31,797 bases of DNA. Source: a virus. The stretch is from positions 1 to 31,797 of the IMG/VR virus record IMGVR_UViG_3300045988_073059, one strand, 5' to 3'. Both the position numbers and the translations under genes were made by a program. Position 1 is the first letter of the stretch. Each line of letters starts with the position of its first letter. Below are positions 18,969 to 29,865 of the stretch, piece after piece. The notes below the pieces were generated by a model. It was not told where the DNA came from. It ran no database searches and saw nothing but the letters and a program-made list of their open reading frames with translations.

Positions 18969-19040
18969 AGACCAAATCCTTTCAGTCAATCGCAGGTCCT
19001 TTTCCTGCGCTGAAAGAATTGTCTGTGAGTGTTAACAGCT

Positions 19041-19068
19041 AAAAGAAAACCCCGCTTGTAGCGGGGTT
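19041..19068 (-). terminator. Rho-independent terminator inside the head operon, after the 77-aa ORF
   Basis: The stem is AACCCCGC / GCGGGGTT (19048..19055 and 19061..19068) with a 5-nt loop. On the minus strand TTTTCTTTT follows it. Confidence 0.8.
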
Positions 19069-19073
19069 AGGAG

Positions 19074-19307
19074 TTACTTCATATGTAGCTTGGCGTATTC
19101 AAGAGCAAAGTCAGGTATCTGCTTTACACCAGCTCGATAGTTCAAAATGTCTTGGTCAGTTACTCCCATATCGCCAATATCATGTGCAGCATAACCCTGC
19201 TGTATTACTTCATTTGTGAGAGGGTCAATAAGATAAGCGGAAGTAACTGCATCTATTGGTAAAGATGCAAGGAAATCGCAAATCCTTTTCACTTCTTTAG
19301 CGTCCAT
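19074..19307 (-). CDS. Hypothetical 77-aa acidic protein; candidate immunity/partner protein of the MuF C-terminal domain
   Basis: The ATG directly follows the MuF stop (TAAATG), and a GGAGGG RBS lies inside the MuF 3' end. The composition is AT-rich. A terminator follows. Confidence 0.65.
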   Translation of the reverse strand: MDAKEVKRICDFLASLPIDAVTSAYLIDPLTNEVIQQGYAAHDIGDMGVTDQDILNYRAGVKQIPDFALEYAKLHMK

Positions 19308-20918
19308 TTAGCCCTCCGTTCTTGGTGAAAATTTAACCAGACTGTCTTCTCCGAACATTTTACCATTTTCTGTGAAGATATAGTATCTACCAGTAGACTC
19401 AATATATATTTCAGATGGTGGCGCATATACATCAACTTTAGTTAAATTTGCCAATTCTTGGGCAAAACAAGTTCCATCATAATTATTGCCAGTTGAACAG
19501 CACATAAGTTGGATGGGCTCACCGTTATGGTCCTTCCTGTTTTTAATAATTTTTGCAAGCATTTCAGCATCAATATTACTAATCTCATAAATTTGGATTG
19601 AGTGCGGTGTTCCATGCGCTCCAATCACATAACGCTCTCCATTTAAGCGATGACTAATTATCCTTGTTGAGTTTCTAAGAAGATTGTCATATGAGTTTGT
19701 TGTTGAAAAGAATATTGCGTCTTTAGATTGAACCGCTCTTTTAATGGCTTTGTATTTTTTACCCTTTTCCTTCCTTTGCCCACTTGATGCAGACAATGCC
19801 CTCAACGCTCTAGGTTGCTTGCTCACTGCCCAAGCACGCTCACGCTCATAGTCACGGCGCAGATGATTGTCATGCGTGAATTGGCGCAGCTTGTCTTGCA
19901 GCTCACCAAGTCTAATGCGCTGCTTTACTGCGTCTGCTCTTACCTCTTGAAGGTAAGAGATCTCTCTTTTTTGACTTCTAATGAGACGCTCATATCTGCG
20001 CTGTTTCTGCGTAGCTGCGTAGTACTCGTCACTTGTCATGCCTGTGATGCGCTCTTGCTCTGAGTAGTCCATGTCTGGAAGCTGTGAGTATCCAGGAACA
20101 TAAGGGGTCATGTAGTGGTAGCAGTTTGCGCCACATAGCCCTGTTACCGTGCCGTATCCGGTTGACTCAACGAGCGGTGGATACTCAGTACTCCTGCCAC
20201 TTCTTGAATATACCTTGCCTTGCCATTCAGCGTGGCTTGGGCGTGCTCCAAAGTGTGCATCAACAAAGACCAAGTCCCATTCCCACTCGTCCATACGCTG
20301 CATGAGTAGGCGGTTTCTCGCTTGGTTAGCCTGGGAAACAATGTGGCGTCTGAGAGCTGCGTCAATCGTTGTCTTAGTGCCACTGATGTAGTCAATCGTC
20401 TCTAGTCCAGAGTTGGCAAGCCTTGTAACGCCACGCTCCATAACTACTCGTGTTGGCTCTCCAGCTTGATGGCGTGCGATTGCTTCAGCGGTTACGTCAT
20501 ACCAGAGTGCTGCTTGGTCTTTAGCAAGAGCAATGTTTTGACGCTCAAGGACCTCATTCATGCCTTGCGCCGTCTGAGCAGCGATAATAGTTGCTAGATT
20601 GGTCATATGACGGCGTGAGCCCATTGCTCGTACAAACTGCCCCACAAGCGCATCATCAGTCTTTTTAAGCGCGGTCTTCAAGACTTCACGCGTCTGTTTG
20701 TCAATAGCTGGGCGGTACTTGTAGTAGATCGCGAGAGCTTCTTCGCGAGAGAGCCTAGAGAGACGCTCAAAGTCTGCAATCTCTCGACCTCTGATAACCG
20801 CGCCATTGGTGCGCACTACCTCATCAAGTAGGTTCAGAAAGAAGTAGGAGAGTTCCTGCACATAAGCAGACTGTGCGCCCCCTACGAGACGCACAGCGAT
20901 TTCTTCAGTCGGTTTCAC
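19308..20918 (-). CDS. SPP1 gp7 / Mu F-like head morphogenesis protein with an extra C-terminal domain of about 170 aa
   Basis: It has a GTG start. The MuF core contains VFVDAHFGARPSHAEWQGKVY, followed by the family-typical basic coiled coil ending at RDYERERAW (aa ~363). A non-family extension (aa ~364..536) then follows, with GAHG (H435) and LMCCSTG (C473/C474). Confidence 0.85.
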   Translation of the reverse strand: MKPTEEIAVRLVGGAQSAYVQELSYFFLNLLDEVVRTNGAVIRGREIADFERLSRLSREEALAIYYKYRPAIDKQTREVLKTALKKTDDALVGQFVRAMGSRRHMTNLATIIAAQTAQGMNEVLERQNIALAKDQAALWYDVTAEAIARHQAGEPTRVVMERGVTRLANSGLETIDYISGTKTTIDAALRRHIVSQANQARNRLLMQRMDEWEWDLVFVDAHFGARPSHAEWQGKVYSRSGRSTEYPPLVESTGYGTVTGLCGANCYHYMTPYVPGYSQLPDMDYSEQERITGMTSDEYYAATQKQRRYERLIRSQKREISYLQEVRADAVKQRIRLGELQDKLRQFTHDNHLRRDYERERAWAVSKQPRALRALSASSGQRKEKGKKYKAIKRAVQSKDAIFFSTTNSYDNLLRNSTRIISHRLNGERYVIGAHGTPHSIQIYEISNIDAEMLAKIIKNRKDHNGEPIQLMCCSTGNNYDGTCFAQELANLTKVDVYAPPSEIYIESTGRYYIFTENGKMFGEDSLVKFSPRTEG

Positions 20919-20920
20919 GG

Positions 20921-22306
20921 TTACTCACCAAGGTCTGCGTCAAGTGCGACACCGCCAGTCTCGCTGGTAAATGCCTTTGCGTCTTCCTCACTCATGCCTT
21001 GATACTTGACGAGGTACTTCCACTTAGGACAGAGACCGCGTGAAATGTCATCTTTCATCATGTCACGGTCTGCTTTGTCATCTGAAATAACCGAGTCATC
21101 CCACAGAATGTCAACAGGCACAGGCTCGTCTACCTTGTAGCCATTCATAGCACACTCTGCAGCAAACGCACCCTGGACAAGATCTCTTACCGAGTTCTCA
21201 ATGGAGTGCTCATGCTTTCTGATAGTTCTGATAAGCGTTGCATTAGTGCTTACAACCTCAGTTGCCGTCTTGAGTCCTTGTCCCAGCGTGAATGACCAAT
21301 ATCCCGCACCAAAGCCAGTTCTAAAGCCAAGAACAGCAAGAGCATTGTTGAACGCGGTAACCATGTCATCAATGTGCGTGTCAGGGTTGTAGACCGTCAT
21401 AGGAGACTCTGCGCTAATGCCGGCAGAGATTGGCGCAAACATAATCTGGTCCATAGTGTTTACAAACTTAGCTTCACCTTTGCTATCACGCACAATGGCT
21501 TGCTCATCTACAACCATCTTTGGCAGCGAGACCCTAACCTGCCAGTACATCTGGTTAAACGCTTCATCTACCAGTCTGCAGGAATCGCAGATATCTTCAA
21601 TGACAGATGCGCCCAGCGGTGTAAGCTCGTCATGAGCGTTGTACTTGGCTGGCTTAACAAGCGCATAGGTTGGCAGTGGCTGCTTGGTATCGACAAAGCC
21701 AGTAATTCCTTCAACCTCAACAGGGTTAATACGGTTCTGCGAATTAAAGAGCAGCGTCTCAATTACGTGAGACTGCGTCTCTTGATTGAAGTATCTAAGC
21801 TGCAGCTGGTCATACATCTTGGAGTTGACAGTTACCTTGGAGATGAATGCGCAGCCATTACCTAGAAGCGGAATAATCTGCCATGCCTTCATAGAGTCAA
21901 TGCTGGTCGAGACGTTGCCCTCGTATCCGTGGAAGTTTGCTACCCATGCACCAACACCGAGCGCAAAGACAGTGCTGATGAACTCTGCTTGCTCATCAAC
22001 AAAGTTAGGAATAGTGCGCTCTAACCAGTCATTTACCGCGTCTTCAGAACTTGAAAGTATTGTGCCTTCGTTCATGATCAGACTTGGAATCTCACTTGCA
22101 ACCATTGAAGCCGGACTGATTGAGAGCCTGTCATATGAGTCAGCACCATTGTTGATGATGTAAGGCTGCTTGTAGTACTCATTATCGTGCGTGAACCAGC
22201 CCCACCAGAGCTGCTGGAACTTGTCCATTGAGGTGTCCGGCGTAAATTTACGCTTCTTCAGATATCTGAGTGCCCAGTCTGGCTTTTGGATAGTAATCTT
22301 TGACAA
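20921..22306 (-). CDS. Portal protein (SPP1 gp6-like)
   Basis: It is 461 aa and lies between the large terminase and the MuF gene. The TTG start has a GAAGGGG RBS. Confidence 0.85.
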   Translation of the reverse strand: MSKITIQKPDWALRYLKKRKFTPDTSMDKFQQLWWGWFTHDNEYYKQPYIINNGADSYDRLSISPASMVASEIPSLIMNEGTILSSSEDAVNDWLERTIPNFVDEQAEFISTVFALGVGAWVANFHGYEGNVSTSIDSMKAWQIIPLLGNGCAFISKVTVNSKMYDQLQLRYFNQETQSHVIETLLFNSQNRINPVEVEGITGFVDTKQPLPTYALVKPAKYNAHDELTPLGASVIEDICDSCRLVDEAFNQMYWQVRVSLPKMVVDEQAIVRDSKGEAKFVNTMDQIMFAPISAGISAESPMTVYNPDTHIDDMVTAFNNALAVLGFRTGFGAGYWSFTLGQGLKTATEVVSTNATLIRTIRKHEHSIENSVRDLVQGAFAAECAMNGYKVDEPVPVDILWDDSVISDDKADRDMMKDDISRGLCPKWKYLVKYQGMSEEDAKAFTSETGGVALDADLGE

Positions 22307-22322: not shown

Positions 22323-23999
22323 TTACGTCAAGCTTCTGTCATTGATAAGCGTCATACACGCATAACGCACAGCGTCGATAGTGTGGTTATCAGCGTCTGG
22401 CAACTGCCCTGTGAGCTGGTTGTCCTTTGTCATCACATATGAGTAATTGCTGAACTCACGCGCTGCAGTGGTGCAGCTGGAATCAATTACAATCTTTGCG
22501 CGATACTGCAGCCACTTAATCGAGTTATGGATGTTGTGCGCACCAGTCTTGAGTGCACCACGAGCGTTAATGCCATTAGCCTTAAAGTCAGCAATACTTT
22601 TTGGCTCTGCTGAGTCGCACCACACCGTGGCGTATGGCTCAGCGTCTTCAATAACGTCTTCACCGTCTTTGAGAGCGTTACCGAGCTTTTCGCTTACGAG
22701 CTCAGCGGTGTCTTGGTTAGAGAGTCCACACTTAACGAACTCATCCAGGATGTAGAGCGTGCGAGTCTTTGCGTCATAGGCAATCTTTACCCATGCAAAT
22801 GGATCCTGTGAGAATCCCCAGTCAACGCCGTAGTAGTGATACTCAAGCTTTTTGCGCTCTGCGTGCGTGATGCCTCTCACCTCAACGCGGGTAAAGACCT
22901 CAGAGCCAAAGCCAACCTGCTCGCCCAACCACTCATGACGATATGCTTCCTCGTCAAGCTCTTTGAGTGCTTCAGCGTCTTTTCGTACCTGTTCAGGTAT
23001 CCACTCATGAGGAACATCCAAGTAGCTTGACTCAATGACGCGCTCCGGGTGAGTCGAGAGCATCGTAGAGACGTGCTCATTTACCCAAGCATCACGAGAG
23101 CGTGGTGGGTTGTGGTCGAAGAAGCGGAAGTACACAGAGCCTTCCGGAGCGTCACGAGTGACAGACTGCATAACCGTTCTGAGTTCTCCCCAGCCATTGA
23201 ACTGGTCCACCTCTGAAAACCACTGGTAGGCGTAGTACGTGCCATTAGGTGCCTTGATTGCCTTGGTCTTCTGCGTATGGTCACCACCTCTGAAGGTAAT
23301 GACTTGACCAGTTGCAGGGCGTGTGAGCTTGTAAGGGCTCTTAGAAGGCTTCCATTCGTCACGGATGTTCAGCTTGTCAATCGCCCAGAGCATCTGCTCA
23401 AAGACACCGTCTCCGATATCCTTGCCAATCTTTGGCATGATGAATGCTGAGCGGTCCTTGTGCTCCATAAGACCTTGCATGATCTCTAGAGAGACAGTGG
23501 AACTTTTCAAAGAAAAACGCCCTCCTCTTAGCCACCATTCACCTCCCGCATCTTGTGCGATTGCACGATGCAGTGAGAGAAACGGTGGTGCTAAGAGAAG
23601 GGCGAAGTCTGCCACGAATGGCTTCTCTTCTTCTTCCACATCTTCTGGGATTGCGTCTAAAAGCGTCCTGCCAATGGAAGAGATAGCAGTGACTGCAGTC
23701 TGGTTCACGCCTGAGTCAGCAATAGACTCTTGCGCCATTGCGAACGTCTTACCCATGCCATTTAATACTTGAGCACGGGTGATGGTTACTTTCTTTGAAG
23801 CTCTCTCTTGGAGGTCTTGAAGCCTTGCCTTTATCTTGCTGTCTGCTTCAAGCCTGCAAGCAGCTTGGTCAACAGTATCTGGCTTCCACTTTGAACGGTG
23901 CGGATAAGCTTCAAGCATTGCCTGTCTCTGGCTTTTGCCAGCAACTCTTGCGAGCACATACTTCTCATGGTTTGCGTTTGTGAGTGGTTGCGTCTTCAA
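22323..23999 (-). CDS. terL: Terminase large subunit (PBSX/Terminase_3-like) with an N-terminal small-subunit-like (Terminase_2-type) domain
   Basis: TerL motifs are YYGVDWGFSQDPFAWV, VWCDSAEPKSIADF and DADNHTIDAVRYA. The Walker-A-like sequence is LRGGRFSLKSS at aa 157..167. The N-terminus LTNANHEKYVLARVAGKSQRQAMLEAY...TITRAQVL resembles P27-type TerS and is followed by the acidic linker PEDVEEEEKP. It has a TTG start. Confidence 0.85.
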   Translation of the reverse strand: MKTQPLTNANHEKYVLARVAGKSQRQAMLEAYPHRSKWKPDTVDQAACRLEADSKIKARLQDLQERASKKVTITRAQVLNGMGKTFAMAQESIADSGVNQTAVTAISSIGRTLLDAIPEDVEEEEKPFVADFALLLAPPFLSLHRAIAQDAGGEWWLRGGRFSLKSSTVSLEIMQGLMEHKDRSAFIMPKIGKDIGDGVFEQMLWAIDKLNIRDEWKPSKSPYKLTRPATGQVITFRGGDHTQKTKAIKAPNGTYYAYQWFSEVDQFNGWGELRTVMQSVTRDAPEGSVYFRFFDHNPPRSRDAWVNEHVSTMLSTHPERVIESSYLDVPHEWIPEQVRKDAEALKELDEEAYRHEWLGEQVGFGSEVFTRVEVRGITHAERKKLEYHYYGVDWGFSQDPFAWVKIAYDAKTRTLYILDEFVKCGLSNQDTAELVSEKLGNALKDGEDVIEDAEPYATVWCDSAEPKSIADFKANGINARGALKTGAHNIHNSIKWLQYRAKIVIDSSCTTAAREFSNYSYVMTKDNQLTGQLPDADNHTIDAVRYACMTLINDRSLT

Positions 24000-28463: not shown

Positions 28464-28648
28464 TAGTACCGCTCCATGTAGCAGCCTTTGAAGCGTCTCC
28501 ACTCAAGAATCAAGCCAATCGCATTAGCCTTTCTTGAACCGTCATATCCCAACGAGATACCTTCATCCTTAGCAAGTGCCTTGATCTCCTTCATCGTCAT
28601 CTTTTCGAGACGCTCTCTGTCGGCTTGCTCTTTTGCCTTTGCATCCAT
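28463..28648 (-). CDS. Small protein with a HeH/SAP (Rho_N-like) motif
   Basis: The motif is MTMKEIKALAKDEGISLG. The ATG forms a TAATG overlap with the LPXTG gene stop. Confidence 0.55.
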   Translation of the reverse strand: MDAKAKEQADRERLEKMTMKEIKALAKDEGISLGYDGSRKANAIGLILEWRRFKGCYMERY

Positions 28649-29865
28649 TACTTCTCCTTTCTGACTAGATTGCTGGAGATGATGAATGCAAGTGCAGTCG
28701 TTCCAACTCCAGCTGCGACCGCAATAACTGCGTCATCTCCCGTTGCTGGTAAAGCTGCTTTCTTAGCCTTCTTTACCTTCTTGGCAGGTTTAGCTGGCTC
28801 AGGCTTAGACTGTGGATCCGGGTCAGACTCTTCTGGAGTAGGCTGTGGCTGTGGTCCTGGAGTTGGCTCTGGAGTCGGTGTTGGCTCTGGGGTAGGTGGA
28901 GTCTCCGGCTCAGTTGGCTGTGGACGATTGTCACCGTTACCGTTACCGCCAGAATCAGCTGCTACATAAGTCCAGACGCTAGAAGCTTGCTTCTCAGCTG
29001 AGTACAGCGTGATGGAGTTTTTAATGCGTGGATTCTTGGTTGTGCGGTAGATGAGGAAGTACTGCTCACCGTTAGCCATTGCATTGTGCAGGTTCAGTGT
29101 GAACGTGGAACCATTGATAGTTGGCTCATCAACCTGCACTGGCTGCCAGCCATAAGAGTCATCGATTGCCCCATATTCATCCATATGAACGCGGTAGAGC
29201 TTGAATGAACCTGGAACGTAAGAGCCCGCTTCAATGGAGTCTTCCAGGATGACATTGGTAAGGTTCATCTGGTTGACGTTAAGTCGCACCTTCCACTCGA
29301 TAGTGTCAGCGTCTGTGTCAGCAACGCCCCACTTAGCAATGACCTCGCCTGTGAGGACGTTAGGACGCTCAGTGTGAACTGTGAAGCTTACAACTTGACC
29401 GGTAGAGGTCTGAACGATTCTCAACTCTTCATGATCTAGTCCGTTATCTTCACCAATCCATGTTGCTAGCCATATTGAACCCTTGATGTTGTCTTTGCCT
29501 TCAACGTAGTTGGTAAAGGTGACGTGACATGTCTGAGTGAGCGGGTTAATCTCTGCAACTGCGCAGACTTCTCCGTCTGGCGTGTAAAGGTTGAAACTCG
29601 AAGCTGCGTCATCTGGGAAGCGCAGGAAGGTTGGAAGCTCAATGTCGAATGAATCGCCGTTGTGCAACTCCTGTCCTGTGGCATCCCAGTTGATATTCAT
29701 ATAGAACTTGGAATGCAAGCCTACTGAGTTGACCGGTTGCTTCTCTAGGTTTGTTACCTGAAAGCTCGTGAGCTGGACTGGTACCGTCTGAGCCTGTGCA
29801 AATGCTGGCACAAATACCAGTACTGCAAATACACAAACAGCCAGCCATTGAAGAAGCCTCTTCAT
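28648..29865 (-). CDS. Sortase-anchored (LPXTG) surface protein with MSCRAMM-like Ig-fold domains and a Pro-rich wall spanner
   Basis: The signal peptide is MKRLLQWLAVCVFAVLVFVPAFAQA. The adhesin-like N-domain contains WDATGQELHNGDSFDIELP...VTFTNYVEGKDNIKGS. The Pro-rich spanner is PTPEPTPTPEPTPGPQPQPTPE. The sorting signal is LPATGD, a hydrophobic helix and RKEK. Confidence 0.9.
   Translation of the reverse strand: MKRLLQWLAVCVFAVLVFVPAFAQAQTVPVQLTSFQVTNLEKQPVNSVGLHSKFYMNINWDATGQELHNGDSFDIELPTFLRFPDDAASSFNLYTPDGEVCAVAEINPLTQTCHVTFTNYVEGKDNIKGSIWLATWIGEDNGLDHEELRIVQTSTGQVVSFTVHTERPNVLTGEVIAKWGVADTDADTIEWKVRLNVNQMNLTNVILEDSIEAGSYVPGSFKLYRVHMDEYGAIDDSYGWQPVQVDEPTINGSTFTLNLHNAMANGEQYFLIYRTTKNPRIKNSITLYSAEKQASSVWTYVAADSGGNGNGDNRPQPTEPETPPTPEPTPTPEPTPGPQPQPTPEESDPDPQSKPEPAKPAKKVKKAKKAALPATGDDAVIAVAAGVGTTALAFIISSNLVRKEK

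Follow-up and report, generated by a model that had tools for sequence, protein, structure and literature searches.

Results

A minor capsid gene with an AT-rich end and a coupled small gene

The stretch of DNA analysed here (the window) is the whole of IMG/VR virus record IMGVR_UViG_3300045988_073059, 31,797 nucleotides long, and represents a roughly 31-kb temperate siphovirus or prophage. Our subject is a pair of genes in its head module, which reads terminase, portal, MuF2 gene, small open reading frame (ORF), scaffold and major capsid. The MuF2 gene encodes a minor capsid protein with a variable C-terminal end, called the tip below, and its stop codon TAA (19310-19308) directly abuts the ATG (19307-19305) of the small ORF, which encodes an acidic protein of 77 amino acids (aa). 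The features of the locus, all on the minus strand, are the following, with the kind of evidence in brackets.

19308 to 20918, minus strand: MuF2 gene with a predicted toxin function (536 aa plus stop), combining a minor capsid/MuF2 N-terminus with a variable, putative protease tip (ORF; PF06152, phrog_581).
19802 to 20918, minus strand: conserved backbone part, aa 1 to about 373, ending in …RDYERERAWAVSKQPRAL, a putatively capsid-targeting MuF2 core plus basic coil (identity; ratio of non-synonymous to synonymous substitutions, dN/dS).
19722 to 19801, minus strand: strongly basic linker with which the variable cassette begins, aa ~374-399 (collapse of nucleotide identity, charge).
19311 to 19721, minus strand: predicted C80-like cysteine protease domain (clan CD, 'Tox-Caspase' type), aa 400-536 (AlphaFold2 (AF2) model, Foldseek, weak Pfam matches).
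19614 to 19616, minus strand: codon of H435, the predicted catalytic His, in an HG motif (conservation, alignment to 3eeb).
19497 to 19499, minus strand: codon of C474, the predicted nucleophile, in an S/C-C-x-T-G motif (conservation, alignment to 3eeb).
19312 to 19317, minus strand: GGAGGG ribosome-binding site (RBS) of the 77-aa ORF, within the end of the toxin gene (sequence; kept in orphan copies).
19074 to 19307, minus strand: 77-aa acidic protein (pI 4.6), predicted cognate immunity protein or inhibitor of the tip (co-variation, orphan arrays).
19038 to 19068, minus strand: intrinsic terminator with a 9-bp GC-rich stem and a U-tract, belonging to the shared backbone and forming the right-hand boundary of cassette exchange (folding, identity across classes).

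The cassette formed by the last ~163 residues of the MuF protein and the abutting 77-aa ORF measures ~725 nt and is AT-rich (G+C 0.37-0.40 versus 0.51). By part, G+C is 0.515 in the MuF core, 0.366 in the C-terminal part, 0.402 in the small ORF and 0.500 in the next 500 nt. The motifs YVIGAHGTPHS (H435) and LMCCSTG (C473/C474) are found in the C-terminal part, and the linker stretch aa 364-399 has a pI of 11.6 and a net charge of +11, with a low predicted local distance difference test (pLDDT) score in the first structural model.

An earlier reading of the sequence alone, hereafter the original prediction, had described this layout, and we located all of its elements: the 536-aa and 77-aa ORFs, their TAAATG coupling and the RBS inside the upstream gene. 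The sharp drop in G+C that it placed from ~19800 was also measured, the values being 0.335-0.39 across 19300-19800 versus 0.48-0.54 on either side (flanks of ~0.50). As for the terminator, the signal itself is real: its 9-bp stem (19068-19048), followed by UUUUCUUUU, folds at -15 kcal/mol (z = -3.9), and 0 of 200 shuffled sequences were as stable. Its inclusion in the cassette had to be given up, since it is identical backbone in all six cassette classes described below, where it stands directly 3' of 'TAACTCCTAA'.

Tip and small ORF are exchanged as one cassette

The N-terminal part of the protein was identified without difficulty, PF06152 (Phage_min_cap2) matching aa 69-347 with an E value of 4.4e-57 and 194 bits (cutoff 26.3), and the minor head protein family phrog_581 matching with an E value of 6e-66. 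Within the MuF superfamily, PF06152 is the member named 'MuF2' (Jamet et al. 2017, PMC5576092), which confirms both the MuF head-protein identity and the link to an established phage MuF toxin family put forward in the original prediction.

MuF relatives numbered 831 at E <= 0.001, and the 120 matches listed among them were compared. Across these 120, aa 1-373 are 97-100% identical, and at least six tip classes follow (536, 565, 568, 607/608, 623/625 and 626 aa in total protein length), the tips being mutually unrelated; truncated forms and one intein-bearing form are also present among the listed relatives. Nucleotide identity with all other classes is lost just past …AVSKQPRAL (gene nt ~1117, window ~19801) and returns at 'TAACTCCTAA' and the terminator, right behind the stop codon of the small ORF. 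The exchangeable cassette therefore corresponds to window ~19077-19801. A junction peptide, …KQPxAL, is common to all classes. The original prediction had expected C-termini to be swapped among close gp7 homologues, and unrelated tips are indeed what is seen, so the extension is not universally conserved; the end of the conserved part, which had been set at aa ~363, lies at aa ~373, in …AVSKQPRAL.

Each class has its own small ORF (57, 58, 62, 77, 80 or 94 aa), which abuts or overlaps the stop codon of the MuF gene, and G+C is low in each of the six examined cassettes (tips 0.34-0.43, small ORFs 0.35-0.43, versus 0.51). Similarity between small ORFs is found only where the tips are themselves similar (74% between 536 and 536b, 37% between 623 and 626). 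This joint swapping of small ORF and tip across classes agrees with the toxin/immunity-like coupling of the C-terminal domain and the 77-aa ORF that had been proposed. The dN/dS ratio is 0.02-0.04 for the MuF core, 0.07-0.34 for the tip and 0.16-0.34 for the small ORF; tip and small ORF are thus roughly 10-fold less constrained than the core.

By motif, the alternative tips all look peptidase-like (P0008/P0032 for 565 aa, P0012 for 568, P0014/P0050 for 608/607, P0011/P0060 for 623/625 and P0007 for 626). An HExxH motif occurs in three alternative classes (HEAGH, FHEIAH, FHEVAH), weak SprT-like/PhageMetallopep matches in two of these three, and JAB/RadC-like motifs, 'THTHP…S…D' and 'NHPS…PSGAD', in the 565 and 568 classes. 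Different proteases could perhaps be directed at one host process.

Two further variants of the gene were observed. In one relative of 853 aa (P0005), an intein (PF14890) interrupts the MuF2 core precisely at the GANCYHY motif's conserved Cys, between GANC and YHY (aa ~266, window ~20120). The other is a split variant on a 5.8-kb contig, with an extra A in an A6 run (GGTAAAAAATAC, window ~19752-19757), whose products are a MuF core ending in …GEKIQSH and a stop (P0006, 392 aa, 17 member sequences) and a separate protease domain that has a Met of its own (P0001, 158 aa, 4 member sequences). It could be an uncoupled toxin or a homopolymer sequencing error.

Fold and conserved residues of the tip

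Over its His…Cys core, the tip gives two sub-threshold Pfam matches, to DUF4347 (E 0.0025, 18.0 bits, cutoff 24.6) and to Peptidase_C80 (E 0.019, 15.7 bits, cutoff 23.8). These weak matches recur in 62 family members, C80 in 19/62 and DUF4347 in 12/62, any other family appearing in at most 2 members. One bridging sequence, P0138 at 2230-2338, exceeds the DUF4347 gathering score (49 bits) and is at the same time a copy of the tip domain (E 7e-11). A word-indexed protein search with the tip returned 2 relatives only, and an exhaustive profile search was needed to recover the family, which comprises 1,925 proteins at E <= 1e-3 (representatives at 50% identity), 586 of them at E <= 1e-10. No Pfam model captures this domain family.

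Structural modelling gave a clearer picture. A first AF2 model, from a 3-sequence alignment, was unusable (pLDDT 58), and a second, from the 62-sequence alignment, reached a pLDDT of 87.7 and a predicted TM-score (pTM) of 0.84. When this model was compared with the Protein Data Bank (PDB) by Foldseek, a check that the original prediction had recommended, ranks 1-14 were all C80 cysteine protease domains (CPDs), those of the multifunctional autoprocessing repeats-in-toxin (MARTX) proteins of V. cholerae and V. vulnificus, of TcdB and of TcdA, with probability 1.00, E values of 6.8e-6 to 1.3e-3, TM-scores relative to the query (TMq) of 0.41-0.54, and 24-25% identity to the V. cholerae CPD. The next entries were legumain, GPI8, gingipain K and Csx29, which also belong to clan CD.

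Among 176 copies of the domain, H435, G436 and C474 are each invariant in 175, while T476, G477, A499, P500 and G510 are near-invariant, and position 473 is a Ser in 141. A hidden Markov model alignment to PDB 3eeb places H435 on the His of 'VGHG' and C474 on the Cys of 'VGCS', and these two 3eeb residues are 49 positions apart. The same spacing separates the published catalytic residues H3519 and C3568. We predict from this conservation that H435 and C474 form the catalytic dyad of the tip.

The original prediction had guessed a clan CD peptidase, and the structural ranking and the conserved His and Cys both point the same way. It had proposed C473/C474 without choosing between them; C474 is the conserved residue and C473 is not. 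It had also found the domain unplaceable in any toxin family, which no longer holds, as the tip can be placed as a C80/DUF4347-like domain of the 'Tox-Caspase' type (Zhang et al. 2012). Judged by its model, the tip is best described as a distant and compact relative of C80/DUF4347, of the clan CD His/Cys peptidase type, lying outside both Pfam families by threshold.

With a net charge of -4, the tip matches ~30-38% of a CPD as measured by the TM-score relative to the target (TMt). A basic pocket for inositol hexakisphosphate (InsP6) would therefore be unlikely in a domain so short and acidic, and this suggests that the InsP6-binding pocket of the CPDs is absent.

The junction …AVSKQPxAL (window 19802-19817, in all classes) ends in Leu and is followed by the very basic linker. 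Leu is the P1 preference of C80 CPDs, and the junction Leu may perhaps double as a self-cleavage site.

Two sets of matches were discarded. Designed 'Pizza' propellers, found in a PDB profile search with the 62-sequence alignment, are an artefact, six repeat matches of ~2.8 bits having been summed with no significant stretch among them. Weak matches to TIGR00719 sda_beta, RINT1, DUF3783, YjeF_N and similar families do not recur and were considered as noise.

The tip domain on other proteins

In 129 of 134 single-domain proteins, the tip domain lies at most 15 aa from the C-terminus. Its N-terminal partners, in 50 sampled proteins, include MuF2 (seven cases), MuF1 (one), RHS (six), Fil_haemagg_2/DUF637/PT-VENN (CdiA-like), PAAR/prePAAR, PT-HINT and PT-TG. 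Sharing of a tip across delivery systems is a hallmark of polymorphic toxin domains.

A different arrangement is seen in giant WXG100-headed proteins, where 3-5 copies of the tip domain alternate with effector domains (PI3/PI4-kinase-like, TcdA/TcdB-type glycosyltransferase). P0123 (3184 aa), P0126 and P0138 are MARTX-like giants of this sort, some of them WXG100_2-headed, with a domain spacing of ~450 aa and four PI3_PI4-kinase-like domains. From their arrangement, the repeated copies suggest multi-site autoprocessing of polytoxins of the type VII secretion system.

A standalone 161-aa homologue of the tip was also found (P0002, 35% identity; L007 554-2507), behind a DUF4417 protein. The two ORFs 3' of it, of 117 aa (Cys-rich, zinc-ribbon-like) and 108 aa, were considered as homologues of the 77-aa protein and proved unrelated to it; they may represent a different immunity solution for the same domain.

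The partner protein and its toxin-less copies in host chromosomes

Neither Pfam nor NCBIfam nor PHROG offers a family for the 77-aa protein at E <= 0.1. Its own family comprises 76 clusters with identities of 70-100%, which occur only in Atopobiaceae and in phages of this group. Three of its allele groups are found both on phages and in the arrays described below. Given this distribution and its co-variation with the tip, we predict that it is the cognate inhibitor, or immunity protein, of the tip. A weak match to the N-terminal two thirds of the protein (40% over residues 1-55; E 3e-6, a value relative to the candidate sequences only) occurs in a metagenome-assembled genome (MAG) of Cytophagales (L026 6001-6141).

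The hosts of the phage are Atopobiaceae (Atopobium / Lancefieldella parvula), the bacterial host being a human oral/gut commensal, and the complete genome of L. parvula, CP097092.1, contains the same cassette inside a prophage. The GenBank phage collection yielded nothing by megablast of the region or by tblastn of the tip, the phage lineage being known from metagenomes and MAGs. In public databases these proteins are labelled only 'minor capsid protein' or 'hypothetical protein' of uncultured Caudoviricetes.

One copy of the 77-aa gene (in L012) lies in an ordinary chromosome without any MuF gene. It belongs there to a row of four tandem small ORFs, similar to the partners of the 626-type (75%), 608-type (79%), 568-type (90%) and 536-type (81-86%) tips. 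Such an array forms an AT-rich island of 1.0-1.65 kb, ~240 bp from tRNA-Leu(TAA). The array loci, recognized by homology of their small ORFs to the partners of the cassette classes, are:

L012, 2050 to 3234; and L013-L016 and L018-L022 (for example L018, 5050 to 6234).

One genome per species was scanned, and the 77-aa gene was found in 13 Atopobiaceae genomes. Four of these contain it in a prophage with MuF and tip, and the other nine in toxin-less arrays of 2-4 genes. The site and the order are constant: 626/623-type, 608, 568, 536, then the tRNA. A tblastn search at E <= 1e-5 revealed no MuF or tip of any class in the nine arrays, only a stub of 24 aa from the toxin end, and no partner of the 565 class was seen in any array. 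The DNA shared by array and phage is limited to window 19000-19337, namely the 77-aa gene, the ~25 nt at the end of the toxin gene in which the RBS lies, and the terminator plus a short stub; degenerate terminator stubs are found between array units. The flanks are housekeeping genes (transketolase/GntR fusion, Ppx-GppA, DivIC, MazG), and no recombinase or mobile-element genes were seen nearby. That the arrays occupy the attB site of the phage was considered and rejected, the window having neither a tRNA nor a tRNA-Leu fragment.

All array ORFs are intact, and comparison of orphan copies of the 77-aa gene with each other gives a median dN/dS of 0.22 (0.09-0.35) at a dS of 0.63. The 77-aa genes of the arrays are thus under purifying selection. 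Since the arrays are of multiple specificity, devoid of toxins and selectively kept, they do not represent a single decayed prophage. Read from their gene content, they bear the classic signature of orphan immunity arrays, predicted to be directed against phage MuF toxins.

Other genes of the window

Besides the head module, the window encodes a tyrosine integrase, a CI-type repressor with helix-turn-helix and Peptidase_S24 domains, a DnaB-like helicase, and a GH25/choline-binding endolysin. The terminase gene is at 22323-23999, and the portal-like protein of 461 aa (20921-22306), directly before the MuF gene, matches SPP1_portal with an E value of 5.9e-4, under the cutoff. A 405-aa protein (28648-29865, minus strand) combines Big_8 and collagen-binding domains with a Pro-rich tail and is a candidate adhesin 'moron', of the kind involved in lysogenic conversion.

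Discussion

We consider it probable that the locus is a polymorphic toxin-immunity cassette of the MuF family, carried by a temperate siphovirus of Atopobiaceae, in which a protease tip is paired with a 77-aa inhibitor and countered by arrays in host chromosomes. Taken as a whole, the toxin/immunity interpretation of the original prediction is supported. The course of events that we infer is as follows. The MuF2 part (aa 1-373), by analogy with SPP1 gp7 and in line with the models of Jamet and of Iyer, would bring the protein to the inside of the capsid, at the portal, from where it would exit with the DNA, so that a few copies per virion would reach the infected bacterium's cytoplasm. Once inside, the tip, acting as a thiol protease, would cleave one or more host cytoplasmic proteins, possibly after having freed itself at the basic linker. 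In the producing cell or lysogen, the 77-aa acidic protein, which shares a transcript with the tip and has a tightly coupled start, would block the tip. Recombination with the …KQPxAL junction at one end and the conserved terminator at the other would swap the cassette in one piece, and hosts possessing the inhibitor alone, in the arrays beside tRNA-Leu, would neutralise incoming tips. The outcome for the infected cell might be killing, a bias in the choice between lysis and lysogeny, or the disabling of a defence.

Several points weigh against this reading. The tip stays below the curated thresholds of PF11713 and PF14252, its top TM-scores are moderate (TMq 0.53, TMt 0.29-0.38), and at ~137 aa it is ~70-110 residues shorter than the solved CPDs (200-250 aa). 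Alignment of the family profile with the 3eeb fragment by hhalign is not significant (probability 5.7%), and we therefore claim no sequence-level membership of C80. Known C80 domains are cis-acting autoprocessing modules activated by InsP6, and not toxins acting in trans; moreover, InsP6 is to our knowledge absent from bacteria. Finally, the 77-aa protein matches no known immunity family, Imm36 included.

Three other explanations were weighed. The tip could be purely a releasing peptidase, acting in cis like the CPDs of MARTX and TcdB, that trims or frees the MuF part during head maturation or ejection and has no toxicity in trans. The closest structures are all autoprocessing CPDs, the internal repeated copies in the WXG100-headed multi-effector giants resemble processing modules, and the conserved junction …KQPxAL ends in the Leu that C80 enzymes prefer at P1. 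Most caspase-like domains of polymorphic toxins have also been described in such terms (Zhang et al., PMC3482391). The tip, however, is the C-terminal-most element, with nothing downstream to free. It is allelic with unrelated tips, HExxH domains included, and it has a dedicated co-varying partner that hosts keep, free of toxin, under purifying selection. The partner gene and its toxin-less copies in hosts imply a harmful activity in trans that needs neutralisation, and we therefore regard a releasing function by itself as unlikely. Self-cleavage and toxicity of the tip are nevertheless compatible, and not mutually exclusive.

According to a second and still less probable explanation, the small ORFs would encode chaperones specific to each tip, or factors for its assembly, and the arrays would have been left behind by decayed prophages and be selectively neutral. 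It would account for the absence of homology to any known immunity family, for the phage backbone stubs (terminator remnants) retained by the array units, and for the adjoining tRNA, tRNAs being frequent integration sites. Yet a prophage carries one cassette, whereas an array combines up to four classes, always in one order and free of other phage DNA; in 9 species genomes no ORF is broken, dN/dS is 0.09-0.35 at a dS of ~0.6, and the phage window lacks any tRNA-Leu fragment. A chaperone for a capsid tip would be useless in a cell without the capsid protein, and a chaperone role is hard to reconcile with the arrays.

That the tip is an InsP6-activated effector directed at eukaryotes and acting on human cells, as its solved relatives (all InsP6-activated domains of toxins active in the eukaryotic cytosol), the human oral/gut commensal host and the precedent of Bxa, a MuF fusion active on epithelial cells (PMC11699363), might suggest, is the least credible possibility, because a domain of 137 residues with a net charge of -4 and about a third of the CPD missing (TMt 0.29-0.38) is ill-suited to a basic InsP6 pocket, its homologues are found at the ends of antibacterial delivery systems (RHS, CdiA-like, PAAR), and the orphan immunity genes are held by bacterial chromosomes, which points to the bacterial cytoplasm.

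Returning to the toxin-immunity reading, the surprising part is the existence of arrays against phage-delivered toxins, which exceeds the cassette itself in interest. Toxin-less partner genes under selection are the type of evidence that established immunity in the contact-dependent inhibition (CDI), Rhs and type VI secretion system (T6SS) fields. By the same logic, toxin-less partner arrays under purifying selection argue that capsid-delivered tips would harm recipient bacteria. One may go further and propose that Atopobiaceae maintain beside tRNA-Leu(TAA) a dedicated, vertically conserved 'poly-immunity' locus, in which inhibitors of the alternative virion-delivered MuF tips of temperate phages are stockpiled; our confidence in this proposal is evenly poised between acceptance and doubt. 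Should it be true, it would describe a host defence that works by neutralising an injected phage effector, it would mean that MuF tips are active inside infected cells and influence how an infection ends, and it would offer a first way to approach what MuF toxins do biologically. We found no report of orphan immunity arrays for MuF toxins in the literature searched. In the study of Bxa, immunity homologues always accompany the MuF toxin, and poly-immunity is only speculated upon (PMC11699363).

MuF toxins occur widely among prophages in the human microbiota, yet only two of their enzymatic types are characterised, namely Apk2 and Bxa. If the model of the tip is correct, the present locus adds a protease-type tip, drawn from a family that would be related, in minimal form, to the CPDs of MARTX and C. 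difficile toxins, which are of clinical importance. The arrays, for their part, make the purpose of MuF toxins testable.

Comparison with known systems

The locus resembles the MuF toxins of Jamet et al. (2017, PMC5576092) in its MuF2 N-terminus, in the position of the gene just past the portal of a temperate phage, in its variable tips shared with other toxin families, and in the small ORF (<150 aa) immediately 3'. It differs in the nature of the tip, predicted here to be a clan CD cysteine protease, whereas the characterised Apk2 and Bxa are a (p)ppApp synthetase and an ADP-ribosyltransferase (PMC11699363), the latter being fused to MuF in a Bacteroides prophage (PMC11699363). Caspase, C80 and DUF4347 are not mentioned in the text and supplements of Jamet et al., as far as the part of table S7 that was covered goes. 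Immunity genes of Bxa homologues are always beside the toxin (PMC11699363), whereas here they are found in toxin-less chromosomal arrays as well.

With the Tox-Caspase domains of Zhang et al. (2012, PMC3482391), the tip shares a caspase-like alpha/beta fold and a His…Cys dyad, and their phyletic range includes 'Caudovirales' (PMC3482391), as here. In that work, the C-terminal-most copies are predicted to be toxins, and internal or repeated copies in giant proteins to be releasing peptidases (PMC3482391). Two differences are seen: MuF is not among the delivery systems listed for Tox-Caspase, being listed only with papain-like proteases, and the immunity protein listed is Imm36 (PMC3482391), as opposed to a 77-aa protein with no Pfam family. 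The kind of domain was therefore already known, and what is new is its fusion to MuF2 and the family of 77-aa partners.

The C80 CPDs (PDB 3eeb, 3gcd, 3fzy, 8yjc, 3pee, 3pa8 and 3ho6) are the best structural matches, with the same His-Gly … Cys order and aligned catalytic residues. Unlike the tip, which is ~137 aa long, acidic, terminal and accompanied by a partner gene, they are 200-250 aa long, have a basic InsP6 pocket, and are internal cis-acting modules of eukaryote-directed toxins. We know of no C-terminal Tox-Caspase that has been characterised experimentally. The resemblance to DUF4347 (PF14252) lies in the weak, recurrent profile match over the His…Cys core and in the bridging sequences that satisfy both profiles, although the tip itself remains under the gathering score (18.0 versus 24.6 bits). 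One DUF4347 protein, PA0256 of P. aeruginosa, is a putative Hcp-dependent T6SS antibacterial effector, for which no immunity gene was identified (PMC8262886).

As to the arrays, their counterparts are the orphan or poly-immunity loci, mentioned in generic terms in PMC11699363. Like these, and like acquired interbacterial defence (AID) clusters, the Atopobiaceae arrays are tandem immunity genes of several specificities without toxins, in genomes that are exposed to them.

In CDI, Rhs and T6SS, as in the AID clusters of Bacteroidales, tandem immunity genes of several specificities are kept without the toxins. The toxins predicted here, in contrast, would be delivered by a phage capsid and no secretion system, and the arrays are distinguished by a single conserved tRNA-Leu(TAA) site with no recombinase or mobile genes nearby, and by a phage-terminator stub in each unit.

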